Below are positions 242-31,580 of a stretch of 32,000 nucleotides of DNA, piece by piece. The notes beneath the pieces are model-generated. The model was not told the origin of the DNA, made no database searches, and saw nothing but the letters and a program-made list of their open reading frames with translations. The first letter of the stretch is position 1. Each line of letters opens with the position of its first letter. A program made the translations under genes and the position numbers. Origin of the DNA: Promethearchaeota archaeon (lineage in GTDB: Archaea; Asgardarchaeota; Hermodarchaeia; Hermodarchaeales; Hermodarchaeaceae); NCBI GenBank assembly GCA_048938295.1, contig JBHLMI010000011.1:1-32000 (forward strand), in the 5' to 3' direction.

Positions 242-255
242 TTCGAAGACGTATT
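242..255 (+). repeat. dispersed polar repeat, left box only (TTCGAAGACGTATT)
   Basis: Exact left box; shares TCGAAGACGTATT with the copy at 2183. A degenerate right half (CAGAAACGTGTTGTTTTTCAT, ~287-307) is possible. Confidence 0.5.
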
Positions 256-458
256 CGCTTAGGGGAAAGGAATAGCTACATTTTGTCAGAAACGTGTTGT
301 TTTTCATGTGATAATCCAACTATTTCCGCATAAATCGTAGAGTAGACCTGTTCGCAAAGGAGAGTCCGTTTTCTCTTTTGCCGGGCTGTATATGCCCAAA
401 TAACAAAAAGGAGTGGGAGAAATGGAGTACTGAATTCAAATAAGGAGACCTTGATTTC

Positions 459-1295
459 GTGGAAGATATTATCCTGAGGTATACTACAGCGGACGACGAA
501 AAGGTACAGGTTCAGATTCCTCCAAATAAAACTGATATCACGTTCTATGGTCGCGATATTGTTGAGTTGGACCTCTCGCCTATTAACCGGCGTACCGAAA
601 TTGAAGAGCTAGATTTGCGAAGAAACCAATTGACCAAAATTGACCTTAAACCACTTCAACACTGTCCAAACTTGAAGAACTTGCGGTTAAGCGGGAATCA
701 GTTAACTCAACTCGATCTAGGTTCGCTTGAGCATTGTTTGCGATTACGGAGACTGGGATTAAGTAATAATCAATTAGTGGAGATTGATTTGACTGCATTA
801 CAAACATGTACGAAACTCCGAGAACTTCATTTGTCAGCTAATCAATTACAGAAAATTGATCTTTCCTCCCTTCTTCAATGTACGGACCTTCAAGAAGTGT
901 GGCTTAATTGGAACGCACTTAGAGAAATCGATTTAACCCCAGTTGGGCAGTGGAGTCATCTAGAGGATCTGATTCTGGATCGGAATCAGTTGCGGGAAAT
1001 TAATTTGGCACCATTAAAGCTGTGTACAGACCTTCGAACTCTCAAATTAGGAGAAAATCAATTAACCTCCATTGATTTAGAACCACTTCGAAATTGCCCA
1101 AAGCTAGAACTCTTGTATTTAGCGGCTAACCCATTTGAGAAGATTGATTTATCACCGCTTTTTTCGTGTCCAGTTTTAGGACTATTTTCACTGAATTCAG
1201 ATATTGAGTTAGTTGCAGACGCCGCACTCAAAGACGCGAAAACCATTCCATTGGCAATTCAAGATCTGAAAGACAAAATCACTTGGCAGGATTGA
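459..1295 (+). CDS. leucine-rich repeat protein (Asgard-type, 24-aa repeats)
   Basis: About 8 tandem LxxLxLxxNQLxxIDLxPLxxCxx repeats; GTG start with AAGGAG upstream. Confidence 0.92.
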   Translation: MEDIILRYTTADDEKVQVQIPPNKTDITFYGRDIVELDLSPINRRTEIEELDLRRNQLTKIDLKPLQHCPNLKNLRLSGNQLTQLDLGSLEHCLRLRRLGLSNNQLVEIDLTALQTCTKLRELHLSANQLQKIDLSSLLQCTDLQEVWLNWNALREIDLTPVGQWSHLEDLILDRNQLREINLAPLKLCTDLRTLKLGENQLTSIDLEPLRNCPKLELLYLAANPFEKIDLSPLFSCPVLGLFSLNSDIELVADAALKDAKTIPLAIQDLKDKITWQD

Positions 1296-1703
1296 ATTAC
1301 ATCGTTCTCAGGTGGCGTGGTCCACTCCGCATATACTCATTCCTGGTCTACCAGTCCAAGTGCGTTAGTTTTGTAACCGCCGATATTACGGCCGTAAATC
1401 TCTCATACACTATTCTTCTCTATCCATGTTTTCGTACTCTTCAGACCACCCGATATCGGTTCTTTTGACACGTTCACCTGAGATTAGCACATATTCACGG
1501 TTCTTGCGAGCGCGTGGTCGACGATCCAAATCCCGCATAACCCGTCCGTCAGTTTGTTCATCATCATTTGTTTCTTCGTTCATATTCTATCAGCTCCTGT
1601 ATTAGTTATGAATTGAGAGCCAGTCTCAGCGCCCTATTTGGACTATACCTTATTGTTCAGCAGAGAGTGGGGTGGCTGAGACTGGATTAGGGTGATTGGT
1701 AGT

Positions 1704-1898
1704 TTATTCCACCACAACGTTTGTGGCTTTTGGCCCGCGGTCGCCGGCTTCGATTTTAAAGCTGACGTTGTCGCCTTCTCTAAGCAGGTTAGCGCCTTCG
1801 ACTTCGCTGCCGTGTACGAATACGTCGGTGCCTGTTTTGCGTTCGATGAAGCCGTAATTACGGTCGGGATTAAACCATTTGACTGTGCCTTTTACCAT
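1704..1898 (-). CDS. cspA: cold-shock domain protein (CspA family)
   Basis: KGTVKWFN, RNP1 YGFI, RNP2 VFVH, GPKATNV. True start is probably the ATG at 1898, because the GTG at 1907 lies inside the GAGGTGA RBS. Symbol is family level only. Confidence 0.93.
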   Translation of the reverse strand: MVKGTVKWFNPDRNYGFIERKTGTDVFVHGSEVEGANLLREGDNVSFKIEAGDRGPKATNVVVE

Positions 1899-2182
1899 AG
1901 TGTTCACCTCGATTCACTTGAGTTGAGATGGCGTTATCTCTCAGGGATAGGTGGCTGTGTCACGCAACCGTGCTGTTCCGTTGAATGTAATTCGGGGGAA
2001 TAGCTGCCTAGCACGATAAGCTAAAGCTCTTTAAAAAACGAAACTAAATCCTATTTGCTAACAACAAGTGGAAAGCCCGAGAGTGCTTATAGGTGTTGCT
2101 CTTCCTTGTATGTGACAGAAGTTTGCCCACAATTGGGTACTCCAGGTGGTTTCAGGTGCGTTATATGTTCGCATGAATGACT

Positions 2183-2240
2183 ATCGAAGACGTATTTGTG
2201 ATTCTTCATTAATGAGCTGAAAGATGTTTGAGTTCACATC
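2183..2240 (+). repeat. dispersed polar repeat copy (25-nt spacer class)
   Basis: ATCGAAGAC-GTATT-TG...CTGAAAGATGTTTGAGTTCACATC. Confidence 0.75.
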
Positions 2241-2332
2241 CTTGCTTGCTGAATTGAGTGTTTCAGGATAGTGCTAAGTTCGTAAATCTGTTCATTGTAA
2301 TGCCTACATGATGACTATGTGGGCCGAGTGGT

Positions 2333-3274
2333 TTAGGAGTGAGGGTGGTAGGATAGTGCGATTTGGATTTCTTCGATGTTTGCGTGTTGTTCGGCTAAAA
2401 GGGGTGCAGTATATTCGCTGGTTGAGAAGAAAATCTGTTCTCTGAGTGGGAGATCGGTCCATCCCGCGGCGACGGTTTCCTTGGCGAGTTCTATTAGCAA
2501 GCGTTTCCAAGCGGCTCGATAACCGGGTCGGACGGCGCGGAATCGCATTATGGCTCGTTCTTCCTTGCCTCTCAGAAAAATCCCATCGGGTTTGAATCTG
2601 AGGGGCGCGCTGGCGGCCACGATTTGATCTCCTTCGAACACCATGACTGCGTGCCCGTCTTTGAGGACTCGGTCTTTAAAGTAGCTCTCCCATGCTTCTT
2701 GGGTTGGGAAAGCATTGCGGGTATTGGGATCCGACTGGCAGACTTCAATTAGCCGAGTAATATCTTTACTTGTGGCCACTTGACTACGAAAGGAGCGAAT
2801 ATCTTCGGTTAGTTTCCATTCACTAACCTCCTTCACATCATAGTCTAGGGCATAGAGGAACACTCGCTCTTTCTCGGTGAAGCCGTTCTCTGTGAAAAAC
2901 CGGATTTGTTCATCAGCTATCTTTGAAGCCAATACTACTCCGGTAACGATTTCTTGAATTTTCTTGTTCTCTTTGATGTAGCTAATGAGGTCCTTGAAGA
3001 TTTTTTCTTGGACATTGGAGGGGCATCCGGGTAAAGCCCAAGGATAACCCATGCCAATCGTCCAGGGTTGGGAATCAGAGCCACTTGCTGAGATGTAGGC
3101 GAGTGGCTCGTCTTTTTCCGTAAACGCAAACCGCATCAGTTTTGGATCGCGATTTAGGGCTTGCAATCTGATCTGGTCCGCGGTCACGGGAAGACCTGAA
3201 GCCGTGGTGTAAATCTTGGCCCTTACTTCTTCTAGGTTCTGCTCTGGTTCATAATGACGATAAATGACTTTCAT
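2333..3274 (-). CDS. hypothetical protein, possible tandem GNAT-like acyltransferase fold
   Basis: 313-aa ORF with GGAGG RBS; two GNAT-like halves (FFTENGF; AVRPGYRAAWKRLL). Fold is a guess. Confidence 0.6.
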   Translation of the reverse strand: MKVIYRHYEPEQNLEEVRAKIYTTASGLPVTADQIRLQALNRDPKLMRFAFTEKDEPLAYISASGSDSQPWTIGMGYPWALPGCPSNVQEKIFKDLISYIKENKKIQEIVTGVVLASKIADEQIRFFTENGFTEKERVFLYALDYDVKEVSEWKLTEDIRSFRSQVATSKDITRLIEVCQSDPNTRNAFPTQEAWESYFKDRVLKDGHAVMVFEGDQIVAASAPLRFKPDGIFLRGKEERAIMRFRAVRPGYRAAWKRLLIELAKETVAAGWTDLPLREQIFFSTSEYTAPLLAEQHANIEEIQIALSYHPHS

Positions 3275-3455
3275 GTTCTATCAACCTCCTTACGTGGTGT
3301 CTTTATGATATCGATTCTTAGATTATGGACATTATGTATTGGGAATGGTTAAAACATTCTCAGGTATTGAGAAAATTACATTCTTCAGTTATAAAAACAT
3401 GATGAAACCGGATGCCAATTATTATCCGAACATCCGCAAACTCCGATAATATCGT

Positions 3456-4088
3456 CTAAGCTTCCTTTGTTTCTCCCCATCTTTCAAAATGCACCTTCTT
3501 TTGTAGTGACACCGGTTTTTGTTTTATAACGTGTTTATGTGGGTACCCGATTGGGATTATAGCGGCGATTTCGTAACCCTCGGGAATATTCAACGCTTTT
3601 TTGAGATCGACCGTATCGTAGGGTATCTTGGTCACGCCATACAACCCCTCTGCCGCCATCGCTAACAAAATATTTTCAATACAACACCACACGGAAGCGA
3701 AACTATTCAAGTCGAAAAGGGTTTTACAATTCTCGAGAGATTTTCTCATTCTAAAACAGACGATAAGCACTTCAGGTGCACTCAATAGCATTCTTTTCTG
3801 GACGGGCAACGCCTTTAGATACATCTCTTTCTCTAACTGATCAGTCATCCCCTCAGTCCATTCGTTAATCTCTTCACCTGAAAAATCGTGTGAACTCGGC
3901 TCCAACTCGAGAACTTCTTTCCTTCGTTCAATATTCTTCAGTAGAATAAATTCCCATTCTCTTTGATGATTATGCGTCGGAGCTTTCAATCCAGCATCTA
4001 AGACTCGTAGAAGTTTCTCCTTTTCCACCGGTTTAGCCTGAAACTCTCGGATACTCCGCCTCTTCTTGAGAACATTATAAAAATCCAT
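3456..4088 (-). CDS. nitroreductase family protein
   Basis: N-terminal KRRSIREF, APTHNHQREWEF, ENILLAMAAEGLYG and IPIGYP motifs. Confidence 0.92.
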   Translation of the reverse strand: MDFYNVLKKRRSIREFQAKPVEKEKLLRVLDAGLKAPTHNHQREWEFILLKNIERRKEVLELEPSSHDFSGEEINEWTEGMTDQLEKEMYLKALPVQKRMLLSAPEVLIVCFRMRKSLENCKTLFDLNSFASVWCCIENILLAMAAEGLYGVTKIPYDTVDLKKALNIPEGYEIAAIIPIGYPHKHVIKQKPVSLQKKVHFERWGETKEA

Positions 4089-4255
4089 GTTCCATCACCT
4101 TGGAATCCAGATATCTATTAGTAATTTCTGCTGACACAGCCCGAATTATCTTGTGAACACTTAAATTTCGTTTTTTACCTTTTGCATAGAGGTAACAACG
4201 ATCTCAACTGAAAGTAATTCAGATGTTGACAGTCTTGGTGGAAGATAGATCTGTA

Positions 4256-4600
4256 TTATGGGCTAGAGTCGCTATTCGCTTTTCTGTCAACTCGTACTTC
4301 ATAGTGTTGTGAGCGGGCATCATAGCGGGAAAGTAAGGCTCTCGCTTTCGGGGGAACCACGGCAGCTTCATAGTCTTCGCCAGCAAAGGCTCGGATGGCT
4401 TCAAGGGTGTCAAACCACATGATGGTGACGAACTCGACTTCCTTGTCAACCACCCGACGAAAGAGGTGAATGCCTCGATACCCTGCAATATGGCGGTCTT
4501 GAATCCCGTTGAATATTTCCTGTTTGAGAAGAGTTTCGTATGCGTCAGCATTTTGGGGTGTGGTCCATCCATGCCAGATTCGACTGATCATATTAATCAT
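4256..4600 (-). CDS. antibiotic biosynthesis monooxygenase (ABM)-like dimeric alpha/beta barrel protein
   Basis: MISRIWHGWT...EFVTIMWFDTLEAIRAFAGEDYEAAVVP..HYEV pattern; start may be the ATG at 4591. Confidence 0.85.
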   Translation of the reverse strand: MINMISRIWHGWTTPQNADAYETLLKQEIFNGIQDRHIAGYRGIHLFRRVVDKEVEFVTIMWFDTLEAIRAFAGEDYEAAVVPPKARALLSRYDARSQHYEVRVDRKANSDSSP

Positions 4601-4770
4601 TTCCCTGTTTGGGTAGGCTATCCTAGATTTTCACATTTGTGGGTGCTTATTGGGCTCTGATTGAACTTTAGGGTTAGAGTAGGTGAGTCTTCTCATTCAT
4701 TATGTGTCATTCTGCTATGCGTCGAGACTATTTAGTATTCTCAAAGAATTAATTTCAAGGTTATAGAAAT

Positions 4771-5076
4771 TTAGGCTAAGGGCATCACAAGATTACCCAG
4801 TATAACTCCCGCGCTCATTGCCTCCGTTGCTACAAGGCGATGAACATTATATGATCCATTTGAACCACAAGTTATTAGGAATTTAGGAGATTGTAGATAG
4901 TGCTTCTCTTTTTGAAGTAGATTCACTTCTTCTAACTCATCACGATATAATTAGCGTTTTCTCCTCAGATTTTCAAAGTCTTTTATCAGCCTATCTACGA
5001 CGTTATGAGATTCTGATAACATCTCTTCAACTAGGGCTTCTGGTAATTCAACAAATGGCTTTTCTTCCTTATTCAT
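4771..5076 (-). pseudogene. NurA-family nuclease N-terminal fragment (pseudogene)
   Basis: Hand translation: MNKEEKPFVELPEALVEEMLSESHNVVDRLIKDFENLRRKR*LYRDELEEVNLLQKEKHYLQSPKFLITCGSNGSYNVHRLVATEAMSAGVILGNLVMPLA*. In-frame TAA at 4951-4953; TCGSNGSY matches the NurA DGS catalytic motif with D>N; truncated at ~100 codons. Confidence 0.6.
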
Positions 5077-5165
5077 CAATCTCAAATTCTATAATCACGA
5101 CTTCAATGAGTATCAGTCAGTGTGAAGAATCCAATTTCAATTGCGAGAAGAGGGAGGTATTGAGA

Positions 5166-6452
5166 TTATAACGCGAGATAATGGACCAGTTGTTTTGTCA
5201 TATTGAGTAGGTCATCGATTCGGACCCATTCGTCGGGTTGGTGGGCTGAAATATTATCTAATGTTATTGCTCCAACGCCGATGAATTTGTCTGTGTTTAG
5301 TGCGTGAGCGACAAAGCCCATGTCTGTGGAGCCAGATGCACCACCATAAACAAAGTCACTGTCTTGGTAGCCGTGAACGGCTTTCAGGGCGGCTCGCATT
5401 TTTTGTGAATATTGATTTTCGGTATCGGCTTTAAAGGGGTAGTTGGCGTGGGTAAATGTAACTTCAACATCCAAGGCTTTACTGTTGGCTTGTCCTCGTT
5501 CAATGGCAGCACGAATCTCTTCAACGATATCCTCATAGTTTTCTTCTGGTATGTACCGACGATTGATGAGTAATTCACATTCTGAGGGGACAATATTGGC
5601 TTTGTTGCCTCCACTTATAATGTCAAGATTAAACATAGGTGTCATCTGATCTGAGGGGGCTCCCAAGCTTCGAAGCGCCGGAATGAGAGGAACCTTGGAT
5701 TCTCGTTTTTCTACTTCTTTTTTAAGTTTGAGCAACTCGACGAGGATGGGAACCATCTCTTCTACTGCGTTAATTCCTAGAAAGTTCATCCCAGAATGGC
5801 AACTTCGTCCTTTGGTGCGAATGGTAATATCGACCATCCCCGCTACACCACCCATGATAATTGGGAGCTGGGTGCCGAGTTCGGTATTGAGAATGTGTCC
5901 TTTCACGTACCCTTCTTTTGCTAAGTGATAAATGCCCGGGTAAACGCCAATTTCTTCATCGGTGCAAAGTGTGCAGATGAGATTGAAGTGGGGTGTAAGG
6001 TTGAGTTCATTCATGACCTCGAAGGCCACAAGCATACCCGCGATTCCCGATTTCATATCACAGGCGCCCCGGCCATACAGCTTGCCATTTTCAACAATAC
6101 CTGCAAAGGGATCCTTCGTCCAAGGCTCTTCAATGGGTACGACATCCATGTGGGCATAGATGGTGACCGCTTCTTTTTTGTCATGTTCGCGAGTGGCAAC
6201 AAGATTGATACGAGGACCTTCAAGAGGATAGGGGATTGCTTTGATATGTTCGTCCGGTACAATTACTCGTTCAGTAGTAAAGCCGAGGTTCTTGAAAAGT
6301 GGCTCCAAGAAATCGACCAAGTCTGCATAATTGTTACCTGGGGGGACAACCGTGGGAATCTTAATGCACTCTCGTAAGAGGTCGATGATCCGCTCACGTT
6401 TTTGCTCAACCGCCCTAAACACCTGTTCCACAGAGGGTTGTTTAGTGCCCAT
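5166..6452 (-). CDS. M20 family metallopeptidase/amidohydrolase (ArgE/DapE-like)
   Basis: AHMDVVP, LYGRGACDMKSG, TDEE, GRSCHSG, SAHQPDEW. Start placed at ATG 6452 after an AGGTGA RBS; the ORF is open to 6488. Confidence 0.93.
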   Translation of the reverse strand: MGTKQPSVEQVFRAVEQKRERIIDLLRECIKIPTVVPPGNNYADLVDFLEPLFKNLGFTTERVIVPDEHIKAIPYPLEGPRINLVATREHDKKEAVTIYAHMDVVPIEEPWTKDPFAGIVENGKLYGRGACDMKSGIAGMLVAFEVMNELNLTPHFNLICTLCTDEEIGVYPGIYHLAKEGYVKGHILNTELGTQLPIIMGGVAGMVDITIRTKGRSCHSGMNFLGINAVEEMVPILVELLKLKKEVEKRESKVPLIPALRSLGAPSDQMTPMFNLDIISGGNKANIVPSECELLINRRYIPEENYEDIVEEIRAAIERGQANSKALDVEVTFTHANYPFKADTENQYSQKMRAALKAVHGYQDSDFVYGGASGSTDMGFVAHALNTDKFIGVGAITLDNISAHQPDEWVRIDDLLNMTKQLVHYLAL

Positions 6453-6667
6453 GATAACAATCACCTTTGGCTGAAAGAGGTTCATCAAGCCTTATAAGCT
6501 GACCTCCTCAAGGAAGAATAGAATATTCCTCCTCTGACCCCACCAAAATGATCTGAATCTTCTCGGGGCTTTAGATATATATAGAGCCTCTAATCATAGC
6601 TGCAATGAATCTGGTTCGATGGGCTGTGGTCTGTCTTTTTAAGATTCACAACTTGTCATAGCGGTTA

Positions 6668-7915
6668 GTGGAGTGTGTTGTGATGGGTGAGTATAGTGAT
6701 GAATCATGGCGTAATTGGTGGTTAGCACCTTTTGGAATTTTTTACTTTGGACAGGGATATGCGCTGTCAGCCCTTGGCCTCTTTTTGCCCATATACCTAG
6801 TTACGGTGCTAGGTGTTCCCTTTGCGATTACTGGCTTAGCCTTAGCAGTGATTGGTATTCCGTGGATGCTTAAAATCATCTTTGGGGCCATCAGCGACTC
6901 GGTGGCGTGGGGTCGGTTTGGTCGTCGTCGTCCCTATATCATTTTAATGGCGTTACTGGCGGCAATCGGATGGGCACTAATCCCTTTCTTTCCAGAATTT
7001 AATTTGTTATTTGTCGCTATACTCTTCTTGGTTGCCCTAGCAACAGCGTTTGCTGATACCACGATTGATGGGTTTGCTGTGGATATTACGCCTTCTGATC
7101 GGCGAGGAACCTTACAGGGTATGATGTGGGGGGGAAGAGCAGCTGGATCCATTTTAGGCGCTTTAGTGACCGGCATTATCGCGCAAGCTATTGGATGGCC
7201 AATCGTCTTCTTCCTTGGAGCGATAATTCTATTAGTGATGACGGGAGTCTGCGCCCTTCTTAAGGAACCTGCAAAACCATCCGGGCATATGATGTGGAGT
7301 GCACTCAAGACTGGATTTTCGTCCAAGGGTGTATGGCTTTCGCTATTATTTACGCCGATTTTGACCATGAGTTTTGTATTTTATTTCCAATGGGGAGGGT
7401 TATTCATCGGAGAAACTGTGGCTTTAAGCTTGACAGAGATTGGTCTTGTTCTCGCCCTCATGAACACAGGAGCCGCCATTACAGGATTCCTTGGAGGACC
7501 TCTTGCAGATAAGATTGGACTCCGACGAGCCGTGGCTGGACTGGTGCTGGTACAAATTATTGGGTTGGCAGCGCTACTGTTCGTTCAACCGGGGAATCTC
7601 TATCTCGCGATTGTGATTATGTTTATTCATGGTCTGTGTTGGGGTCTGGCAAATATTGCTTGGCTTTCCCTTGCCATGGCTTCATGCCCCCGAGAAGTGG
7701 GAGGCACTTTCTTCTCAATTTATGCCATGATCTTTAACATAGGAACCATGCTTGCGGTGATTCTCAGCATTTTCATTAAACCTACCCTTGGATGGTCTGG
7801 TTTTATCCTGACCCTCATCGTCATCGTCATAATTAGCGAATTTGTTGGAATTTTAGCCGCTTCACAAGTCAAACAAGTGACCGCTATGAAAACACCACCT
7901 CCCGAAACGAGTTAG
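6668..7915 (+). CDS. MFS transporter (AmpG/BT1-like)
   Basis: About 12 hydrophobic segments; GAISDS...GRRRPY, DTTIDGFAVD and GPLADKIGLRR loop motifs. Confidence 0.9.
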   Translation: MECVVMGEYSDESWRNWWLAPFGIFYFGQGYALSALGLFLPIYLVTVLGVPFAITGLALAVIGIPWMLKIIFGAISDSVAWGRFGRRRPYIILMALLAAIGWALIPFFPEFNLLFVAILFLVALATAFADTTIDGFAVDITPSDRRGTLQGMMWGGRAAGSILGALVTGIIAQAIGWPIVFFLGAIILLVMTGVCALLKEPAKPSGHMMWSALKTGFSSKGVWLSLLFTPILTMSFVFYFQWGGLFIGETVALSLTEIGLVLALMNTGAAITGFLGGPLADKIGLRRAVAGLVLVQIIGLAALLFVQPGNLYLAIVIMFIHGLCWGLANIAWLSLAMASCPREVGGTFFSIYAMIFNIGTMLAVILSIFIKPTLGWSGFILTLIVIVIISEFVGILAASQVKQVTAMKTPPPETS

Positions 7916-8062
7916 ATACACCCAATCATTATCTATCAGGTTCAGGCAACAATATGCACACGATGCAGTGCGCGTCAACTACCACCGACTGAAGTCGCTG
8001 GTTTCCTTGACCAGGCTTCTATGATGCATATATAGGAGCCTCTAGCATAAACCCTCGGACCG

Positions 8063-10861
8063 GTGATAGGCATGAGCAGAGAATCTCCACCAGAAGGGCT
8101 CCTCGACTATTCAGAATGTCTAGCGAGCCTCGGCACAGACCCTGAAGGGCTGAAACCAGAAGAGGCTAAAAAGAAGCTCTTGGAACACGGACGTAACGAA
8201 CTCACAATGAAGGAGAGGCAGAGCCCCGTTTCGCTCTTCCTCCGTCAGTTCAAATCGCCTCTGGTGTATGTTCTCATTTTTGCCGCCGTTGTCTCTATTC
8301 TAGTAGACCATGCAGTAGACGCAGTGGTCATCGCCATCATTCTCTTGATCAATGCGACTATAGGCTTCGTCCAGGAGTGGAAGGCAGAAAGAACCATCGA
8401 GTCCATCAAACAGCTCATAGAACAGCGGTCCATCGTCATTCGCGGTGGAGAGGAGACCGAGATCCCGTCCGCAGAGCTGGTGCCTGGGGACCTGCTCCTT
8501 CTCAGAGCTGGCGAGAAGGTCCCAGCAGACGGAAGGGTGTTATTCGAGAGCAACCTGCATGTCGATGAGAGTCTCCTCACTGGCGAGAGCGTACCAATCA
8601 AGAAAGATGTGTTCTGCGCGGTTGAGAACCCACACTACTATGAGGAGTCCAACAAGGTCTTCGCTGGCTCGTATGTTACAGAAGGACGCGCCCGTATTCT
8701 AGTGCTGGCTACTGGTGATAACACCACTTTAGGTGAAATCAACAAGGAGCTCTCGGGCGTCGCTAAGAAAGAAACAACCATCATGATTCGAGTAAAGCGA
8801 CTGAGCATCTTCTTTCTTGCTGCTGCAATGCTCTTCTTGGTGCTCACAGTAATTTTGGGGCTCTACCGGAGCATACCCGTTGTGGAGCTCTTACTGTTCT
8901 CACTATCTGCACTTGTATCTGCAATTCCTGAGGGACTCATCGCTATTGTCACCATAGTGCTCTCTGTTGGAGTCTACAAGCTTTCACAGAAGAATGTCAT
9001 TGTGAGAAACTTGGGTGTCGTAGAAACGCTAGGCCTAGTCAATGTCATTTGCTCCGACAAGACCGGAACTCTTACGAAGAACCAAATGATGACCCGCAGG
9101 ATATTCACTCCGAACCATATGTTCGAGATAAGTGGCGTAGGATTTGATGTCGAAAGCGGAGGGGTCTTCCTTGCAGGCTGTGGCCCAGCAGAATGCCTTC
9201 GTTCGCCAGACCTCGATATGAGCCAAGGGTCCTCAGAAGAGCGCATCGAGGGGGATGGGCTCAAGGAGTACCCCGATCTTGAAAGGCTTCTGACGATGAT
9301 GGCTCTCTGTAATGACTCAGAAGTCTATTCGGAGTGCCTCACAGCAGACGACCCAACGAGAATCTGCACCGGAGCCGATCAGGCATGGAGGATACGCGGG
9401 TCACCTACTGAGGCTGCTCTGCTGGTGGCGTTGGAGAAGGTCGGTCTTCACAAGTATGTGCTCGATGAGGCCTGGCCACGTATTTCTGAGATTCCCTTCA
9501 ACAGCGAGAGGAAGTTCATGGCTACGCTTCATCAGCCCAGCAAGCTCCTGGGTGCAGAAGGAGAGGAAAATCTGGTCATAGTAAAGGGAGCCCCAGAGGT
9601 CATAGAGCAGTTACTTGTGGCCCAATCAAACACAGAGGAGATCGTAACGGAGTTCGCTTCACAAGGACTCAGAATGCTCGCATGCGCGGTCAGGACTGTA
9701 TCCCCTGATAAGACCCAGATAGCCCAGGAGGATCTCAGAGACATGGCATTCGTTGGACTCTGTGGAATCAACGACCCACCAAGGGAAGCCGTCCGTGACT
9801 ACATCGAGAAGGCAAACAGTGCAGGCATTGCTGTCATCATGATAACTGGTGACAATGCCTTTACAGCCAAGGCAATTGGGCAGGAAGTGGGCATCTTTGT
9901 TGAGGAGAGAGGAGACCTGATACTTACTGGTGATGAGATAGATGCTATGGATGACCAGCAGCTTCAAGATGCACTGACTCATGGTGCAACAGTCCTCTCC
10001 AGAACGAGCCCAATCCACAAGCTCAGAGTTGTAAAAGCACTGCAGAGCCTCGACAAGCTCGTCAGCATGACGGGCGATGGCGTGAATGACAGCCCAGCTC
10101 TAAGACAGGCTAACGTTGGCATAGCTATGGGCGTCACAGGGACTGACATCGCCAAGGAAGCCTCTGATATCGTGCTGCAGGACGAGCGCTTTGAGGCTGT
10201 AGTCGACGGCATTGAAGAGGGTAGAAACATCCTGGCTTCGCTCCGGCGTGTTGTTCTCTTTCTGACATCGACGAATCTGGCCGAGAGCTTCACTATCCTT
10301 GCAGTGCTCTTGCTTTTCGTGAATCCTGTTCTTCTGCTTCCGATTCAAATCCTTTGGGTCAATCTCGTTACTGATGGCATGCTAGACATTGCGCTCTCTC
10401 TCGAGCCAAAGGAGAAGGGTCTCTTGGATGAAGGGCCAGGCTCCCTGAAGGATCGGATCCTCTCTTGGGAAACCCTCAGCAGAGCGCTCTTCTATGGTGG
10501 CATCATGGCATCCTTAGTTGTCATCATCTACTACCAGAATCTTGGTCTGCCAGAGGACAAGATCAGGACAATGATGTTCGTTACTCTTATCGTGGTCCAG
10601 TGGTTCAGCGTCCAGAATTGCAGATCCCCCACCAAGTCAATTCGAGAGATGGGAATCCTTCGGAATCGATACATACTCGTCGTCTATCTCATCAACATCA
10701 TACTAGTCGGAATCCTCTTTGTGGTCCCAGCGCTAACAGCAGTCTTCAAAATTGTGCCGCTTTCTTGGTATGAATGGATTGAAGTGGTCCTGTTCGGATC
10801 CTTGGTTATCATCCTTGAAGAAGCAAGGAAGCTCGTAGCAAAGAGACTGCGCAATGACTAG
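8063..10861 (+). CDS. P2A-type cation (probably Ca2+) transporting P-type ATPase
   Basis: TGES, AIPEGL (M4), DKTGT, KGAPE, DPPR, TGDGVND, M5 TNLAE, M6 WVNLVTDG. M8 has Q at the SERCA E908 position. Confidence 0.95.
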   Translation: MIGMSRESPPEGLLDYSECLASLGTDPEGLKPEEAKKKLLEHGRNELTMKERQSPVSLFLRQFKSPLVYVLIFAAVVSILVDHAVDAVVIAIILLINATIGFVQEWKAERTIESIKQLIEQRSIVIRGGEETEIPSAELVPGDLLLLRAGEKVPADGRVLFESNLHVDESLLTGESVPIKKDVFCAVENPHYYEESNKVFAGSYVTEGRARILVLATGDNTTLGEINKELSGVAKKETTIMIRVKRLSIFFLAAAMLFLVLTVILGLYRSIPVVELLLFSLSALVSAIPEGLIAIVTIVLSVGVYKLSQKNVIVRNLGVVETLGLVNVICSDKTGTLTKNQMMTRRIFTPNHMFEISGVGFDVESGGVFLAGCGPAECLRSPDLDMSQGSSEERIEGDGLKEYPDLERLLTMMALCNDSEVYSECLTADDPTRICTGADQAWRIRGSPTEAALLVALEKVGLHKYVLDEAWPRISEIPFNSERKFMATLHQPSKLLGAEGEENLVIVKGAPEVIEQLLVAQSNTEEIVTEFASQGLRMLACAVRTVSPDKTQIAQEDLRDMAFVGLCGINDPPREAVRDYIEKANSAGIAVIMITGDNAFTAKAIGQEVGIFVEERGDLILTGDEIDAMDDQQLQDALTHGATVLSRTSPIHKLRVVKALQSLDKLVSMTGDGVNDSPALRQANVGIAMGVTGTDIAKEASDIVLQDERFEAVVDGIEEGRNILASLRRVVLFLTSTNLAESFTILAVLLLFVNPVLLLPIQILWVNLVTDGMLDIALSLEPKEKGLLDEGPGSLKDRILSWETLSRALFYGGIMASLVVIIYYQNLGLPEDKIRTMMFVTLIVVQWFSVQNCRSPTKSIREMGILRNRYILVVYLINIILVGILFVVPALTAVFKIVPLSWYEWIEVVLFGSLVIILEEARKLVAKRLRND

Positions 10862-21372: not shown

Positions 21373-22368
21373 TCATAGTTTTGAAATAATGTGATCCTTC
21401 AGGATATGAATCGTGTCTAATCCCATTTGTCGAATATTTCCCACGAAAGGGAGGCCGATATTGAATACGTCGATATGATCCTTGTATTGACGTAATCGTT
21501 CAATAATCCTCTCAGGGGGTCCTGCTAGATCCTGCTTACAACCCGCCTCGAGAGCCTTCTTCTTAAATTCCTCTGTATATCCCCCTTGAGGCCATTCCTG
21601 ACGTATCACATCGCGTTTTCGATTTTTAAAATCATCGTTATCCTCACCGATGACGGCTACCATGAGTCCTGTAGACCATTCTAAATCCTCAAAGTTGCGA
21701 CCAACCGTTTCACACATTACCCGCATGCGCTCCTTCTTCTGTGCATAGTCTGCCGCTGTTCCTTTGATATAATCCACTCCGTCTGCATATCTCGCCGCAG
21801 TTTCTTCCATCATCGGTGCCTTGAGAGTTTCTGTCCCCACCCAAATTGGGATGCGAGGGCGTTGAATGGGTTTAGGGAGGAACATCGTTTTCTTGATACT
21901 ATAGAACTCACCAGCAAAACTCGGTCGTTCTTCGGTCCATAGCAGATTGATAATTTGGAGCGCCTCCCGCAATTGGAGAATTCGAGTCTTTGGGGAAGGA
22001 TACGTATATCCGTAGGCTTCGTACTCAGGCTTCTTCCATCCTGCTCCGATATCGAGGGTGATTCGACCATTGGACGCGTTGTCGAGGTTCGCCACAATCT
22101 TCGCAAGAAGCGCAGGATTCCGATAGGATTGACACGTGACCGACGTTCCAAGGCGAATCCTCGCTGTTTGTGGGGTGAGTAATGCAAGGGTGGTCCACGC
22201 CTCATAGCATTGGTTCTCCCGGTCTTCATTCCATCCAAAGAAATGATCTGATACGGTGAATCGATAGAATCCTGCATCTTCAGCTGCTTTCGCTAGGGTA
22301 ACGATATCATCGTAAGTATAACCTATATGCGGTTCGATGCTAATGCTAATTTTCATTAGGCTCACCAA
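21373..22368 (-). CDS. LLM-class F420-dependent oxidoreductase
   Basis: SDHF, EAWTTLA, RIRLGTSVTCQSYRNPALLAK, GRITLDIGAGW and PKPIQRPRIPIWVG motifs. Confidence 0.92.
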   Translation of the reverse strand: MVSLMKISISIEPHIGYTYDDIVTLAKAAEDAGFYRFTVSDHFFGWNEDRENQCYEAWTTLALLTPQTARIRLGTSVTCQSYRNPALLAKIVANLDNASNGRITLDIGAGWKKPEYEAYGYTYPSPKTRILQLREALQIINLLWTEERPSFAGEFYSIKKTMFLPKPIQRPRIPIWVGTETLKAPMMEETAARYADGVDYIKGTAADYAQKKERMRVMCETVGRNFEDLEWSTGLMVAVIGEDNDDFKNRKRDVIRQEWPQGGYTEEFKKKALEAGCKQDLAGPPERIIERLRQYKDHIDVFNIGLPFVGNIRQMGLDTIHILKDHIISKL

Positions 22369-22436
22369 CTACTACCTTTGAATAAATGGTATTGAATTCT
22401 AATGTTCTTCGAAGGGCTTTTACTAGTTGAATTAAA

Positions 22437-22494
22437 TTCAAAGACATGTCTGCAATTTCTTCCAAATAGCCTGAAGATTATTTGTTTTGTATAT
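22437..22494 (+). repeat. degenerate dispersed polar repeat copy (25-nt spacer class)
   Basis: TTCAAAGAC-ATGTC-TG...TTCCAAATAGC-CTGAAGATTATTTGTTTT. Confidence 0.65.
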
Positions 22495-22630
22495 TAAACC
22501 TAATGTGAAATGTCACCGCGGATGTCAACAATCCTCTTCTATACTCCACCTGTGGAGGACTTGCAGGTGGCATAGTGCTTATCTACTTTCCAGCCCTTTT
22601 GGAATTCACCGTGATTGTCGGTGATGTGCT

Positions 22631-23359: not shown

Positions 23360-23407
23360 ACACGCACCAACAATTATTTTCCTGTAATAAACGCCCCCTC
23401 TAAGGAT

Positions 23408-23465
23408 TACGAAGACGCAGGTGCTGTTTTTTCCAAATAACGTGAAAGATGATTTGTTTCACATA
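23408..23465 (+). repeat. dispersed polar repeat copy (25-nt spacer class)
   Basis: TACGAAGAC-GCAGG-TG...GTGAAAGATGATTTGTTTCACATA. Confidence 0.87.
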
Positions 23466-23544
23466 ATCAGGTCTATACCTTAGATAATGAATAGGCATGA
23501 ATTCGCCAAATTAAGGTTAAATTTGTAAAATCTTTGAATTGTTG

Positions 23545-23991
23545 CTAGATCACATAGAAGTACACATAGAATGTTAGACCGAAAAGGAATGCTAAGAACC
23601 AGATTGTGATTTGAATTCGCATCTGGGTACGCCTTCCACAGACTAGGGGTTTTTTGCTCGTAGCAAAGTATAGAAATCGAATCGTAAAGATGAGACCAAT
23701 GATTAGCGCTGTGGAGCCAAAGAATACATGAACTAATGTTACTAGTGAGCCCATACTCGTGGGAAATAGAATAAGGACAGGTAGGTTGATGGCTAATGAT
23801 GGCTCCATAATGAGGAGCACTGTAACCAGCATCGAAAGTGTAGCAATGCCCATGATAGTACCATGATACTTCAAAGTTCGCTTTTGAAAAACACCGATGG
23901 TCAAGAGAAGTATGAGAACGATTTGGATTATGAGATTTATATCAAAAATTAATTGTGCAGTTGAACCAAAGAGCACCATCTGAATCACCAA
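23545..23991 (-). CDS. 4-TM membrane protein, DUF420-like
   Basis: Four TMs with intramembrane His residues (KYHGTIM, LVHVFFG); family assignment tentative. Confidence 0.65.
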   Translation of the reverse strand: MVIQMVLFGSTAQLIFDINLIIQIVLILLLTIGVFQKRTLKYHGTIMGIATLSMLVTVLLIMEPSLAINLPVLILFPTSMGSLVTLVHVFFGSTALIIGLIFTIRFLYFATSKKPLVCGRRTQMRIQITIWFLAFLFGLTFYVYFYVI

Positions 23992-24029
23992 GAATTTCTA
24001 GGTTCGCATAGCAGTTAAAGCTATGTTTT

Positions 24030-25382
24030 TCATCTTATCAGCTTCAGAGCGTAATTCGAGAAGCGCTCTGCTACTTTGGCAGTTGCTTTTCCCAGAGCGC
24101 CATTTTTTCGAAGGCGATGTTGAACTAAACCAGCATACATGGCGAGACGTAATTTGTTCTCCGAAAACGCGCTTTTAAAAAGAAGGTCATGGCGGTTCGC
24201 AGATCCACGTTGTTTTCGCCAATCTGGTACAGTAATTTGGTTTTGTACTCGAGAATATAATCCCGTGCCAAAAATCGGGTAAGGAAAGGAATACGACAAA
24301 TAATCAAGAGGAAGTTTTGAAGAGAAATTGAGTGTATCAAGGAGGGTTTCATTTGTTTCTCCAGGATAACCTAGAATGAAGAATCCGCCGGTTTCAATGC
24401 CTGCTTGTTGGGCATTTTCTACAGCACGACGGACTTGCTCGAGGGTTATTCGTTTTCCGATGATATTTAGAATGCTTTGATTGCCTGATTCAATACCAAA
24501 GAAGATACGTCGACATCCTGCTTTTTGCATCTGTGTTGCTAATGTTTTAGAGAGATGATCAGCGCGACTGAGACACATCCACTCTATATTCTGTTTATCG
24601 CGAATCAGGATTTCGCAGATTTCGGCAACACGGTGTGGGTTTTGTGTAAAACAATCATCAGTGAAGAAAACACGGTCATACCCCAAATTGCGAATCAGGA
24701 CCATTTCTTCAACCACATTTTTTGCTGAACGTTCTCGATAACTTTGACCAAAAACAGGGTTACTGCAAAAATCACACAGGTACGGGCATCCCCTGGTGGA
24801 AATCATACTCGATGCAGTATAATGATGGAATGTGCGCCAATACCATTTATACTGAGAATTGGGAAACAAATCGCGCGCAGGGAGAGGAATCGAATCGAGC
24901 GGTTTGATAAATCGCCGACGAGGTTTGACTTTGATTCGACCGCCATTTCCTTTATAAGCAATTCCGCTCGTACGCGTCCAAGAAGTATGCTGGAAATGAC
25001 GCCGAACTAATTCCAAGACGGTTTCTTCTCCTTCTCCTAATACTACGATATCAAAGATGTCGAGGAATTCTTCTGGTACTAGCGAGGGTAGAGGACCACC
25101 AGCTACCATGAGTTCGACACTGGAACGGAATTTTTGGGCAATCATAATTGCATGGTGATTGATAGTGACCATCGAGTAAATTCCCAGAATTCGTGGTTGA
25201 AGCTGTTCAATTCGCCGTAGCGCAGTGTCAAAATGTAGGAAAGTACAATCGACAAGATCAACGGAAAAACCAGCGATGCGAAGAATTGAAGCTAGATAGC
25301 CGAGACCCAAGGGTGGATACCGGAAAATTGAGCGGTCTAATTCTTCGTTGAAATAAGGATAGACGAGTACAATGTCAGTCAC
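24030..25382 (-). CDS. B12-binding domain radical SAM enzyme
   Basis: PPLGLGYLAS and AGGPLPS (B12 domain), GEGEET, RGCPYLCDFC (CxxxCxxC), GIESG, GFFILGYPGET. Start placed at GTG 25382, 2 nt after the upstream gene's stop. Confidence 0.93.
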   Translation of the reverse strand: MTDIVLVYPYFNEELDRSIFRYPPLGLGYLASILRIAGFSVDLVDCTFLHFDTALRRIEQLQPRILGIYSMVTINHHAIMIAQKFRSSVELMVAGGPLPSLVPEEFLDIFDIVVLGEGEETVLELVRRHFQHTSWTRTSGIAYKGNGGRIKVKPRRRFIKPLDSIPLPARDLFPNSQYKWYWRTFHHYTASSMISTRGCPYLCDFCSNPVFGQSYRERSAKNVVEEMVLIRNLGYDRVFFTDDCFTQNPHRVAEICEILIRDKQNIEWMCLSRADHLSKTLATQMQKAGCRRIFFGIESGNQSILNIIGKRITLEQVRRAVENAQQAGIETGGFFILGYPGETNETLLDTLNFSSKLPLDYLSYSFPYPIFGTGLYSRVQNQITVPDWRKQRGSANRHDLLFKSAFSENKLRLAMYAGLVQHRLRKNGALGKATAKVAERFSNYALKLIR

Positions 25383-25384
25383 CG

Positions 25385-26233
25385 CTACTGACCCTCCAGA
25401 ATCCGTTGCAAGGTTCCAAATTGAACCTCGTATTTGCAAATTCTTGTTGATCTGGGTAATTGCAAAATTATACCCGACCAAAAGATTTCAGGTTCTTCAA
25501 GGACTTCTCGTCCTCGATATGCCCGCCCTTCCGCTGGTATTTCGACGCGGAACCCCAAGTTGAGTCGAGGCGCATAAAAAGCAGCCCATGAACTCTTGAT
25601 TTTAGCCCACGGTTCAATCTGTTGTTGGTCGAGATAGGTTCCGGATGCATCATAGTATTGGGTAAAATGGTGTCCTCCAAGTTCGTTGGCAATGTAAATG
25701 GATTGAAGCGTATTTCGCACTATAGAATCGAAACTTAATTTAATCTTTAATTTTTGATTATCCTGGGTGACGAAATACTGTGATTGACTCTCTCCCCGGC
25801 TTTTCACAGGAATGAAAAATTGAGGTGCAAATTGCTTTCCATGTCTCGGGAAGTCCCATTGAGAAAGCCAAGTGATGAATTTGAGGAATTGCCGACCTGT
25901 TTTCATCTTGTATATTTGATTATGCGCACGAGGGAGTATCCATGAAAACGCCTTGATTGAATTACTAGAAGTGGGTTGCTTTCGTTCAATTAAATTAAAG
26001 CTAAACTTCTTCATCCAGTAGTTCTTCTTGGTTTCTTCTCTGCGTGAAACAGTTGAGGTGCCAGGAAAATAGAAATCACGGCGATATTGAAGAATTGGTG
26101 TCCCGAAACCAAGTCCTTCTCCACATAAATCTAATCCTCCATCCTGAAGGGCAGGAATGAGCCCTTTTTGAATTGGAGCGGATTTTCCTTGGTGGGGTTC
26201 TGGGCAATCAGATATATTGAATGAGAGCAACAA
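25385..26233 (-). CDS. hypothetical protein apparently co-transcribed with the radical SAM gene
   Basis: 282-aa ORF (CGEGLGFGTPILQY; WSGIILQ); its stop abuts the radical SAM start. Confidence 0.75.
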   Translation of the reverse strand: MLLSFNISDCPEPHQGKSAPIQKGLIPALQDGGLDLCGEGLGFGTPILQYRRDFYFPGTSTVSRREETKKNYWMKKFSFNLIERKQPTSSNSIKAFSWILPRAHNQIYKMKTGRQFLKFITWLSQWDFPRHGKQFAPQFFIPVKSRGESQSQYFVTQDNQKLKIKLSFDSIVRNTLQSIYIANELGGHHFTQYYDASGTYLDQQQIEPWAKIKSSWAAFYAPRLNLGFRVEIPAEGRAYRGREVLEEPEIFWSGIILQLPRSTRICKYEVQFGTLQRILEGQ

Positions 26234-26337
26234 CGGGAACCTCCGCTATACGTGCGCTATTATTGGGGTTTTGTGTTTTAACTGGCTTTCTTTATTCTGA
26301 AAATGATTTTTGATATCGTTTCTGATGTTTATAATTG

Positions 26338-26371
26338 CTCAACGATGTGAAAGATAGATTTGTTTCGCGTT
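26338..26371 (+). repeat. dispersed polar repeat, right half (27-nt class type)
   Basis: CTCAACGATGTGAAAGATAGATTTGTTTCGCGTT; left box not recognisable. Confidence 0.8.
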
Positions 26372-26462
26372 AAAGGATCGATCTTTACGCATTTGAAACT
26401 AAATAAGGATATAAGACTTCTAAAAGGAGTTTTGACAGAAGTTTCGGTCACTTGAATCACTA

Positions 26463-29952: not shown

Positions 29953-30005
29953 CCTGAGTTATATCAGTCGAGTTGAACAGATGTTATCGGCAAACCTGAA
30001 TTTAA

Positions 30006-30014
30006 TTCGAAGAC
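30006..30014 (+). repeat. dispersed polar repeat, left box only
   Basis: TTCGAAGAC preceded by GAATTTAA, like GAATTAAA before the 22437 copy; no right half. Confidence 0.45.
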
Positions 30015-30181
30015 TAAATTTCCATTTTAGCTGATAGCACTTCGTAAGAAACTCAACACCATCAAAGACACCATCCACAAACTCGTCAACCCCTCCTCTA
30101 CTCTGAAGTCTTTGCGCCATCATCAATGCGCCATCTGCATGAAAACCGAATAGTATAATGATTTCAATCGGTGGTGGTTGA

Positions 30182-30772
30182 CTAGGGTAGTAGACTTCCG
30201 ATGAGCACAAGTACACCTGCAATGATGAAGGCCGCTGCGGCGATATAGGTGATGGTTGTTGAACTTAGGTATTTGCGGGCACGATCACCTACAAAGACGC
30301 CAATACCATTCACGAGTGCAAGAGCAAAGAATCCGGCGACGAAGACGAGAAGCAGTTGCCCTGTGGTTGCAGCAATAAGAATTATGATTAATTGAGTTTT
30401 GTCACCTAACTCTGCCAAGAACAAGAGAATAAACGCACGCACCCAAACACGTGTTCCATGAGTCTTGGTCTTCTCTTCATCAGGGTCATTGCGTCTTACT
30501 CTGTAGATGCTAAAAATGCCAAGAATAATAAACACAAGTCCGGCGATGAGTTGAATCAGCGTAAGCGGTACAAAGAGCCCAATAAGAGAACCCACAAGGA
30601 CGCCGAGTGCCGTCACTGTGAATAAGCCGCCTAATACTCCAAGATATACTTGGGCAGGTTTTCCTGTTTCAGCCGCGAGGGCGAAGGTGACAAGTTGTGT
30701 CTTATCCGCTAGTTCAGCAAGAAGAACCAATGCAAATACGATAAAAAACAACTGTACTAACACGAGAACCAC
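30182..30772 (-). CDS. TMEM165/GDT1 (UPF0016) family Mn2+/Ca2+ transporter
   Basis: Two signature motifs, LAELADKTQ and LAELGDKTQ; about 6 TM. Confidence 0.93.
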   Translation of the reverse strand: MVLVLVQLFFIVFALVLLAELADKTQLVTFALAAETGKPAQVYLGVLGGLFTVTALGVLVGSLIGLFVPLTLIQLIAGLVFIILGIFSIYRVRRNDPDEEKTKTHGTRVWVRAFILLFLAELGDKTQLIIILIAATTGQLLLVFVAGFFALALVNGIGVFVGDRARKYLSSTTITYIAAAAFIIAGVLVLIGSLLP

Positions 30773-30874
30773 AGGTCAAAACTGCTTGGTGAAGATTGGC
30801 TGAATAGCATTATAGCATCCTAAAGAGTGTGACGCTGTACTAAAGTTCGAGCTGACATGAGCAATAGCCGAAAA

Positions 30875-31291
30875 CTAGCGAGCATGAAGATGGACGATAC
30901 CATAACCAATTGGAATTAAAATCAAAACTCCCAGAGTGAACGAAATAACTAGATTCGTGTTGAAAATCAAATCTCCAAAGACAGGAAGGTAGTAGAAACT
31001 GTTCCATAGCATAAGCAGGAACCAAAAAATAACAGCAAAAAGGATGCTTCCCCCAAAATTCGCGGCTACCCATTTTCTTCGTTGATTTGTATAATACCAA
31101 ATATCAAAAGCTGGGTTACAACACCAATCCATTCGTTCAACATCTCGAACCCAGGGGTTCATCCCAGCATAGATCATCATAATGACGTACACGAGGAAAA
31201 AGAGCCCCAAGGTCAATCCAATCAAAGCGAGAGCCCCAGCAATTACAAAATCAAGAAGGATTAACGGAAAGAATTGGAGCAACCAATACAC
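30875..31291 (-). CDS. hypothetical membrane protein
   Basis: 138-aa, highly hydrophobic ORF after a GAGGTG RBS; no family recognised. Confidence 0.65.
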   Translation of the reverse strand: MYWLLQFFPLILLDFVIAGALALIGLTLGLFFLVYVIMMIYAGMNPWVRDVERMDWCCNPAFDIWYYTNQRRKWVAANFGGSILFAVIFWFLLMLWNSFYYLPVFGDLIFNTNLVISFTLGVLILIPIGYGIVHLHAR

Positions 31292-31519
31292 CTCGCTAAC
31301 AACAGCACTGTATCAGCTAAATAAATTCATGGAGAATATGGTTTTCGAGGATCTTTCCATTCCCCGGGTTTTCAGTTGAAGCAATCGTATTAGGATTACT
31401 TCTAACGCTTAGTCTAGGAGTTCTCGTTCGACGTCACAGAAGGAAGTAGCACCGCTTCCTTCTCTCCTCTTTTTTTGCGAAGAAGCTTTTCCAAGGTGTT
31501 AATCGCCTTTCTTCCCAAT

Positions 31520-31580
31520 TTCGAAGACATACATGCCTGGAATCTTTCAAATGATGTGAAAGAAAGATGTGTTTCACTCC
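31520..31580 (+). repeat. dispersed polar repeat copy (27-nt spacer class)
   Basis: TTCGAAGACATACATGCCTGGAATCTTTCAAATGATGTGAAAGAAAGATGTGTTTCACTCC. Confidence 0.9.

Follow-up and report, generated by a model that had tools for sequence, protein, structure and literature searches.

We describe a polar intergenic repeat in the first 32 kb of a 66-kb contig (C66; JBHLMI010000011.1) of a Promethearchaeota archaeon, whose metagenome-assembled genome (MAG; GCA_048938295.1) comprises 2.52 Mb in 66 contigs and is 91.6% complete. The repeat divides the window, by which we mean this whole stretch of 32,000 nucleotides, into modules of one or several genes. Our results lead us, on balance, to favor the interpretation that gene cassettes are arrayed along the chromosome in the genus Candidatus Hermodarchaeum alone, and that the repeat is both the junction between them and the site at which they recombine. 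It is highly probable that the array is real, that it is polar and genus-wide, and that its cassettes recombine inside the repeat. We lean towards the exchange being site-specific, while a part in it for the host recombinase XerA is a possibility to which we give slightly less than even credence.

Alignment of the copies gives a unit length of about 100 nt. A sequence-only reading of the window had described a polar intergenic repeat of about 60 bp; the element is real and polar, and it is the length that needs correction. The unit starts about 34 nt 5' of TTCGAAGAC with TTTTT..GTGTTAT..GC, and its parts are, in order, a T-run, the GTGTTAT..GC motif, the invariant TTCGAAGAC box, a variable spacer and the palindrome ATGATGTGAAA-N9/10-TTTCACATCAT. 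From 14 species, 115 full-length copies yield the consensus ttTTTTc-N3-gtGTTAT-N2-GC-N12-TTTCGAAGAC-gTAnaTGC-(variable ~10)-AAATGAtGTGAAAGATgaTTTGTTTCACaTCaT. Searches were made with an nhmmer profile built from nine window copies and with a sequence-only covariance model (cmsearch); in the window they recover nine full copies, one left half and one right half, on the + strand throughout. The right-box pattern by itself has 5 matches against 0.08 expected by chance.

The copy nearest to the consensus lies at 16695-16793 (cmsearch, 72.7 bits), with its core TTCGAAGAC at 16728-16736 and its palindrome GATGTGAAAGATAGATTTGTTTTACATC at 16761-16788. Further full copies were scored by cmsearch at 2149-2248 (56.4 bits, E=1e-15) and 15743-15835 (61.0 bits), and a full but diverged one at 12900-12991 (46.8 bits). 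The covariance model also finds full copies at 19069-19170, 20572-20675, 22403-22503 and 23374-23475, and the copy at 31487-31587 is found by both models. The left half, with the T-run, a GTGTTAT-like motif and TTCGAAGAC at 242-250, occupies 210-257 (nhmmer model positions 4-51), and the right half, a palindrome, occupies 26335-26372 (model positions 58-94). Most of the 14 copies listed from sequence alone were thus recovered; those at 11945, 13920 and 30006 are weak TTCGAAGAC-like matches (E=2.2 for 30006, the others below threshold).

The repeat is clustered rather than dispersed, and it is genus-wide. All significant copies in this genome are on the + strand of C66, between 0.2 and 50.9 kb (a span of about 51 kb), while a profile search of the other 65 contigs gave zero significant matches. 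The array continues past the 5' end of the contig, where the left-half copy stands, so that its own 5' end is unassembled, and more copies follow that at 31487-31587, to about 50.86 kb of the contig. With the covariance model, the repeat was present in 13 of 14 congeneric species, at 5-29 copies each, and in none of 4 sister-genus genomes or of 22 genomes from other Asgard families. Among 185,579 species genomes, the exact pattern with the correct spacing occurs only in Hermodarchaeum-type MAGs, and arrays are also present on independent metagenome contigs of the Joint Genome Institute (JGI). Copies on one contig share a strand in 199 of 200 matches (55 contigs, 14 species) and in all 58 matches on JGI contigs; the overall polarity is 234:1 across 71 contigs. 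The repeat accounts for the fragmentation of such regions in MAG assemblies.

Polarity of the repeat is not polarity of the genes. Inside the arrays 139 genes lie on the strand of the repeat and 125 on the opposite strand, and the copies do separate convergent, divergent and co-oriented genes, as the sequence-only reading had it. Successive copies are typically 1.54 kb apart (median; interquartile range, 1.0-2.4 kb); a single gene is present in half of the intervals between them, and several genes in some. The GC content of the array (0.453, against 0.458 for the genome) is a native composition. The sequence-only reading had advised comparing orientation with GC skew and clustering with genome-wide dispersal: the skew of the contig is flat and is uninformative on replication direction, and the outcome on the second point is the clustering described above. 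Its idea that the repeat might be a polar chromosome-architecture site fares worse, given the absence of the element from the other 2.45 Mb of the genome.

Cassettes are shuffled between species with their orientation kept. Orthologues of window modules, at 75-94% identity, occur in the arrays of other species in a changed order; along G012_C42 the modules run 459, 20776, 11077, 48279, 8063, 21373, 29110, 23545, 43724, 40641, 30182, 13037, which is fully scrambled. Taking the strand of the repeat as the forward direction of each contig, we find the two sequences in the same orientation in 529 of the 546 alignments (200 nt or longer) between genomes. Between-genome repeat pairs with homologous flanks, which are not independent events, share the upstream flank only in 41 cases, the downstream flank only in 37 and both flanks in 2. 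As only 2 of 80 pairs share both flanks, neighboring modules are almost never co-inherited.

The breakpoints fall inside the repeat. Over all informative pairs, upstream homology stops at model positions 31-43 and downstream homology mostly starts at 88-97. We took the most similar pairs as the most recent events: in near-identical upstream-only pairs, identity spans the left module and ends just past TTCGAAGAC(rTA), and in near-identical downstream-only pairs it extends from the first bases of TTCGAAGAC via the spacer and palindrome into the cassette. At a relaxed threshold, 16 of the 22 upstream-only pairs that break within the unit do so at box positions 8-12, while the downstream-only pairs start at -4 to +2 in 8 of 27 cases and at +34 to +50, within the palindrome, in 10 of 27. 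Such an asymmetry would be expected of two active crossover zones, X1 in the core and X2 in the palindrome, if on each side the zone nearest the shared cassette erases the linkage beyond it.

Sediment metagenomes provide two further junctions. In a Logan contig from sediment run X2 (depth, 7.3 versus about 17), window position 31537 is followed, after eight letters of other sequence, by position 23434. The joint is a hybrid repeat, in which the left half of the copy at 31487-31587 is followed by the right half (from 23434) of the copy at 23374-23475, and it unites two cassettes that are not adjacent in the window; it would stem from a different order of the cassettes, or else from an excised circle, within the same population. 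A contig from run X4 departs from the window at 19173, right at the end of the copy at 19069-19170. Parts of the window left uncovered in runs X3-X5 are no sign of absence.

These observations suggest a mechanism. The left module of the repeat (T-run and GTGTTAT..GC) would move with the upstream cassette and the right module, ending in the palindrome, with the downstream cassette; the invariant core TTCGAAGAC would be the middle part of the site. Recombination between copies, more often at the core than in the palindrome, may then lead to gain, loss and reordering of cassettes, which have a median size of 1.5 kb, usually hold one gene, and would be expressed from their own promoters on either strand. 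Because all copies are direct repeats, a reinserted cassette would keep its orientation. The enzyme would be encoded outside the array, with XerA binding, and perhaps recombining, the repeats. The sequence-only reading had proposed recombination sites of an array whose cassettes, of 1-4 genes each, have promoters of their own and whose recombinase acts in trans; the clustering, the genus-wide occurrence, the orientation-keeping shuffling and the breakpoints inside the repeat all support this. Two of the outcomes it had named as damaging, equal strand counts genome-wide and synteny breakpoints that ignore the repeat, are not what we see. Its term "integron-like" is apt for the architecture, as an analogy only; there are two breakpoint places, so a homology-driven exchange is also conceivable.

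The candidate enzyme comes from the palindrome. Its arms, ATGAtGTGAAA and TTTCACaTCAT, recur at 6-nt spacing in a 28-bp 11-6-11 site, which is present once or twice per genome in this genome (G000) and in 11 of 14 congeners. The site was absent from the sister genus and from the 12 other Asgard families searched, and a control with the reversed pattern gave 0 matches. In all 10 genomes that record both, it is found upstream of xerA at a distance of 1.4-4.2 kb; no other tyrosine-recombinase gene is conserved. Here it reads ATGATGTGAAA-CATCCA-TTTTACGTCAT at C32:29642-29669 (locus L144:2143-2170), 3.5 kb upstream of xerA at C32:33154-34092, and conservation of the intergenic region by xerA is limited to these 28 bp. 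Many genomes have a second site of the 28-bp type a few kb away. An 11-6-11 layout is the architecture of dif (PMC2958812, PMC8371274), and the 28-bp site is probably the dif site of the genus, beside its recombinase. We regard the product of xerA as a genuine archaeal XerA: it passes the NCBIfam equivalog model for that protein (262.7 bits; cut-off, 220), and its best match in the PDB is entry 4a8e. The XerA of Pyrococcus abyssi, whose structure is solved, is the closest to it, and its scores are below the cut-offs of the integron-integrase models (154 bits versus 265 and 107 versus 435). A dif site adjoining the gene of its recombinase recalls the single-recombinase systems XerS and XerH.

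No xerA at comparable similarity was found in four sister-genus genomes, and xerA, the 28-bp site and the arrays have the same phyletic pattern, being in the genus and not found in the sister genus. Since the arms of the palindrome equal those of the site near xerA, the host XerA is the best candidate for a trans-acting protein, and we infer that it binds every copy of the repeat. Of the two PF00589 genes in the genome, one passes the XerA model and the other is strain-specific; the latter, a 443-residue tyrosine integrase at C33:7137-8465 with a weak PF00589 match, was dropped, as it is absent from the 12 congeners searched. It adjoins a Ras GTPase fragment and is probably within a strain-specific integrated element. 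We found no serine recombinase in the genome, and a PF01797 search of it found no Y1 HUH transposase. Pfam searches of about 55 open reading frames of the contig, of three array 5' boundaries elsewhere and of one JGI contig gave no integrase, transposase or element backbone. A recombinase gene, which the sequence-only reading had advised looking for at the array end, is missing in and beside every array examined, and this agrees with its enzyme acting in trans.

The repeat shows no sign of a conserved fold. RNAalifold gave 0 consensus pairs on 11 copies, and single-strand DNA folds were no better than those of shuffles (z-scores, -0.4 to -1.8). The dyad GAtGTGAAA/TTTCACaTC shows no covariation over 146 copies, with 79.2% of cells paired versus 79.6% in shuffles; as the arms vary independently, the palindrome is best seen as a double-stranded protein-binding site and not as a hairpin. 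The ends of the unit are direct (GTTAT.. / GTTTCAC), not inverted. A search of the 32-kb window gave zero Rfam matches at gathering thresholds, and around the copy at 16728 there were only matches of chance level (E of at least 0.6), so that a known Rfam family, which the sequence-only reading had named as a result to watch for, is not involved. With no fold and no inverted ends, its statement that the repeats are not attC sites is borne out.

The invariant core contains TTCGAA (a BstBI site) and GAAGAC (a type IIS BbsI site) in every copy, as at 16728-16736, and BbsI would cut 2 and 6 nt downstream, near the end of the upstream homology. The idea of a type IIS restriction role for the core was rejected, since neither hexamer is avoided genome-wide (observed/expected, 0.94-0.98). 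Concerted evolution of the cores was likewise rejected: their identity within a genome (0.69) is barely above that between genomes (0.66).

Several observations weigh against the interpretation of the repeat as a site of site-specific exchange, or against XerA as the enzyme. Spacing between the arms varies in the arrays (9 nt in 85 copies, 10 nt in 24, 7 nt in 13, 8 nt in 5 and 6 nt in 2) and is 6 nt at the xerA-linked site, whereas the cores of known Xer and other tyrosine recombinases measure 6-8 bp and are fixed in length. The main crossover core, TTCGAAGAC, is outside the palindrome, about 25 nt upstream of the arms, with no flanking arm motif, and the array is on C66 whereas the locus of xerA and the 28-bp site is on C32. 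Fifty copies consist of the left half only. At 7934-8021, 10902-11014 and 21339-21373, homology with other species breaks at junctions that have no recognizable repeat; as the same genes are separated by repeats in G012_C42, these are apparently cassettes fused through loss of the site. Related copies recur in many of the pairs from which flank sharing was counted. No excised circle was seen among the Logan contigs, and the joint from run X2 could be the gene order of another strain. Finally, the breakpoints form two clusters about 40 nt apart and no single fixed point, and homology-guided exchange would look alike. It is conceivable, though we consider it rather unlikely, that there is no dedicated recombinase, that the repeat is a conserved protein-binding "punctuation" between modules, and that shuffling is a by-product of homologous or microhomology-mediated recombination between direct copies, in the cell or after uptake of foreign DNA. 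The breakpoints match the two most conserved blocks, which are the sole stretches of identity between copies, and exchange between direct repeats keeps orientation automatically; the variable arm spacing, the half copies and repeat-less junctions, and the lack of a recombinase linked to any array examined also agree with this explanation. However, the latest crossovers lie in the 9-12-nt TTCGAAGAC core, while homology would be expected to prefer the longer (21-30 nt) and equally conserved palindrome, and copies that are about 66% identical overall are poor substrates. Nor does homology explain the occurrence in arrays only, the strict polarity and the persistence of near-invariant blocks.

Three other explanations fare less well. 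In one, which we regard as improbable, the repeat is the leftover 3' end (the last ~25 codons, the stop and the 3' untranslated region) of a target gene hit repeatedly by integrase-less elements, as happens in tRNA-tail islands such as those of tycheposons. Translated in the frame TTC-GAA-GAC, the unit gives ..FFxVLxAILLxFEDVxAVSYK, with a stop codon next in about 96 of 115 copies, the ties of the left module to the upstream cassette and of the right module to the downstream one follow the logic of attL and attR, and a genuine actin-tail array is present in this genome. The latter, at C18:800-11520 on the minus strand, consists of nine relics of the last codons of actin (..EQGAGVIHRCF-stop) after an intact actin gene, each with a GC hairpin and a T-run; its architecture is that of the C66 array, with an unrelated repeat, and it was the only further repeat family in a self-blast of the genome. 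Still, no parent gene was found and no match ends an open frame of >100 residues in 15 genus genomes, within the limit that the 5' end of this array is unassembled and absence is not proven. Neither conservation nor substitutions show a codon-position bias (73, 85 and 100 differences at positions 1, 2 and 3), and the only long-frame match, to a sister-genus membrane protein, is internal and at chance level (E=0.84). That protein, whose internal AFEDAGVIHYK is similar to the in-frame translation of the repeat, was accordingly dropped as a parent; it represents a multi-pass membrane protein family found in 4 of 4 sister-genus genomes (G016:C113:4725-5750, G018:C25, G015:C90) and 0 of 15 Hermodarchaeum genomes. 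A small non-autonomous mobile element, such as a miniature inverted-repeat transposable element (MITE) or a palindrome-associated transposable element (PATE) mobilized as single-stranded DNA by an HUH enzyme, or a small or regulatory RNA gene between modules, is very improbable. Small hairpins can be drawn (ATCTTTCA/TGAAAGAT, GTGAAA/TTTCAC) and strict polarity could track the direction of replication, but the genome has no detected Y1 transposase and no copies outside the array, the 146 copies show no covariation and Rfam gave no match, even at E<=5. In addition, the two halves of the repeat differ in history, each tied to a different cassette, unlike a unitary mobile element; the related HUH/Y1 alternative of the sequence-only reading, an element like REP (repetitive extragenic palindrome) or PATE sequences, fares worse through the same lack of a transposase, of hairpin covariation and of dispersal. 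Least of all can the array be a classical integron, or a cluster of attC sites lacking an integron integrase (CALIN), with attC sites recombined by IntI. About 8% of Asgard genomes are reported to carry integrons (PMC9668308), and tandem cassettes with polar repeats between them are what one would look for. However, there is no consensus fold, the unit ends are direct and the palindrome does not covary; the only conserved tyrosine recombinase, at 154 bits against a cut-off of 265 for integron integrases, passes the XerA model instead; and genes lie on both strands, with several in some cassettes. Membership of the integron family is refuted.

In comparison with known systems, the array is not of the integron family and departs in part from the definition of pdif (plasmid dif) modules and of integrative mobile elements exploiting Xer (IMEX), and it works like both. 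With the sedentary chromosomal integrons (the Vibrio superintegron with its VCR, or Vibrio cholerae repeats, and the archaeal integrons of Ghaly et al. 2022; PMC9668308) it shares its place in the chromosome, its many promoter-independent cassettes, the polar repeat of about 100 bp, peculiar to the lineage, that separates them, the shuffling of cassette content among close relatives, an accessory cargo (transport, detoxification and unknown functions) and an enzyme that can act in trans. Unlike these, the Hermodarchaeum repeat has neither an attC hairpin nor R''/R' inverted ends, and there is no IntI. Classical attC sites consist of imperfect inverted repeats (R''-L''...L'-R') that form a single-stranded hairpin, IntI is a tyrosine recombinase with an IntI-specific extra domain that is usually encoded beside attI, and classical cassettes are mostly promoterless single frames co-oriented with the array. 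The cassettes of Hermodarchaeum are bigger, at a median of 1.5 kb and with up to several genes; they have promoters of their own and occur on either strand; the crossover core is in the middle of the repeat, so that each cassette has parts of the site at both ends, and there is a second crossover zone.

With the pdif modules of Acinetobacter plasmids and the IMEX at dif (Vibrio CTX/TLC/RS1 and the gonococcal genetic island) it shares recombinase-less gene modules that are bounded by sites with the arms of the probable host dif site, are stacked in tandem and have the host Xer as presumed enzyme. However, pdif sites alternate in orientation and have a canonical 6-bp spacer, while the Hermodarchaeum sites are all direct with arms 9-10 nt apart (range, 6-10); IMEX arrays are at dif, while this array is on another contig than xerA and the 28-bp site; the dominant crossover is outside the arms; and the system is one of archaeal XerA, for which no such modules are described in the literature searched. 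Tandem accretion at the 3' ends of genes, as in the tycheposon islands of Prochlorococcus (bioRxiv 10.1101/2020.12.28.424599) and in tandem archaeal mobile genetic elements (PMC8371274), is similar in that direct att-like repeats divide a cargo island into mostly integrase-less modules, with left and right parts of the repeat tied to different neighbors. It differs in that neither a tRNA gene nor a protein gene was found to be the parent of the Hermodarchaeum repeat, the modules are much smaller, and about 150 intervals contain no integrase, primase or other element backbone. PATE and MITE of the IS200/IS605 type go with a Y1 HUH transposase in the genome, subterminal hairpins and dispersed copies; here no such transposase was found, the hairpins do not covary and all copies of the genome are in one island. 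A description of such an array was not found in the literature searched.

The cassettes of the window illustrate these features. That at 258-2148 holds a leucine-rich repeat (LRR) protein (459-1295) and a 103-residue protein (1692-2003); orthologues with 81-83% amino acid identity are in the arrays of G012_C42 and G006_C9, where the neighbors differ. The stretch at 2249-12899 is judged from Pfam and from homology breaks versus other species to be compound, made of several former cassettes; it has genes for a 313-residue protein, a nitroreductase, an M20 peptidase with an MFS transporter, a P-type ATPase, an S-adenosylmethionine (SAM) methyltransferase and a luciferase-like monooxygenase. The weak left box at 11945 lies inside it, and a TATA-like element was found within the ATPase cassette. 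A single-gene cassette at 15836-16694 (+ strand) encodes a small GTPase of the Ras/Rab family (16029-16553; Pfam Ras, 9e-50). It is flanked by two near-consensus copies, and a second Ras-family cassette is on a JGI contig (locus L130); eukaryote-like signature genes of the Ras family thus belong to the mobile cassette pool. At 20676-22402 two cassettes are fused, with hemerythrin (20776-21339, +) and a luciferase-like monooxygenase (21373-22368, -); in G012_C42 they are separate cassettes, each with its own repeats. The cassette at 23476-26334 (- strand) comprises a B12-binding radical SAM enzyme and two small partner genes and is also present in G012_C42, at 94% nucleotide identity. No tRNA was found in the window.

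The cargo is accessory. It includes transport and metal genes (P-type ATPases, MFS, FTR1, GDT1, TauE, CbiMNQO, NikR, ChrB and a Na/H exchanger), enzymes (nitroreductases, luciferase-like monooxygenases, hydrolases and the B12-radical SAM module), the Ras-family GTPase, the LRR protein and several family-less proteins. On the 3' side of the last copy are core-looking genes including an HdrA/Mvh hydrogenase. An HdrA/MvhD-like protein of 842 residues is encoded at C66:58371-60899 (L002:10371-12899) on the minus strand and has an N-terminal winged-helix domain (DUF7347/HTH_20).

In summary, the evidence argues for a genus-wide platform, tens of kilobases in length, in which genes for metal and ion transporters, for redox and detoxification enzymes and for small GTPases, and many others of unknown function, are kept and rearranged, in the closest known relatives of eukaryotes, the Asgard archaea, whose acquisition and reshuffling of accessory genes are largely unknown. 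The known machinery is not used: there is no IntI or attC, no transposase and no element-borne integrase. Tentatively, the array may be an independently evolved archaeal functional analogue of the integron, in which XerA, or an unknown partner that cuts at TTCGAAGAC, moves multi-gene cassettes through a composite site of about 100 bp with a central core and dif-derived arms. If so, it would be, together with the actin-tail array, one instance of a general and undescribed integrase-free exchange of cassettes in Asgard archaea. To our knowledge, Xer exploitation has so far been known from bacterial plasmids and phages; if XerA is the enzyme, it would be extended to the Archaea and to a chromosomal cassette array. 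The site itself, a 9-bp invariant core with dif-like arms, is defined by sequence and testable, and it opens the mechanism to biochemistry even though the host is uncultured.

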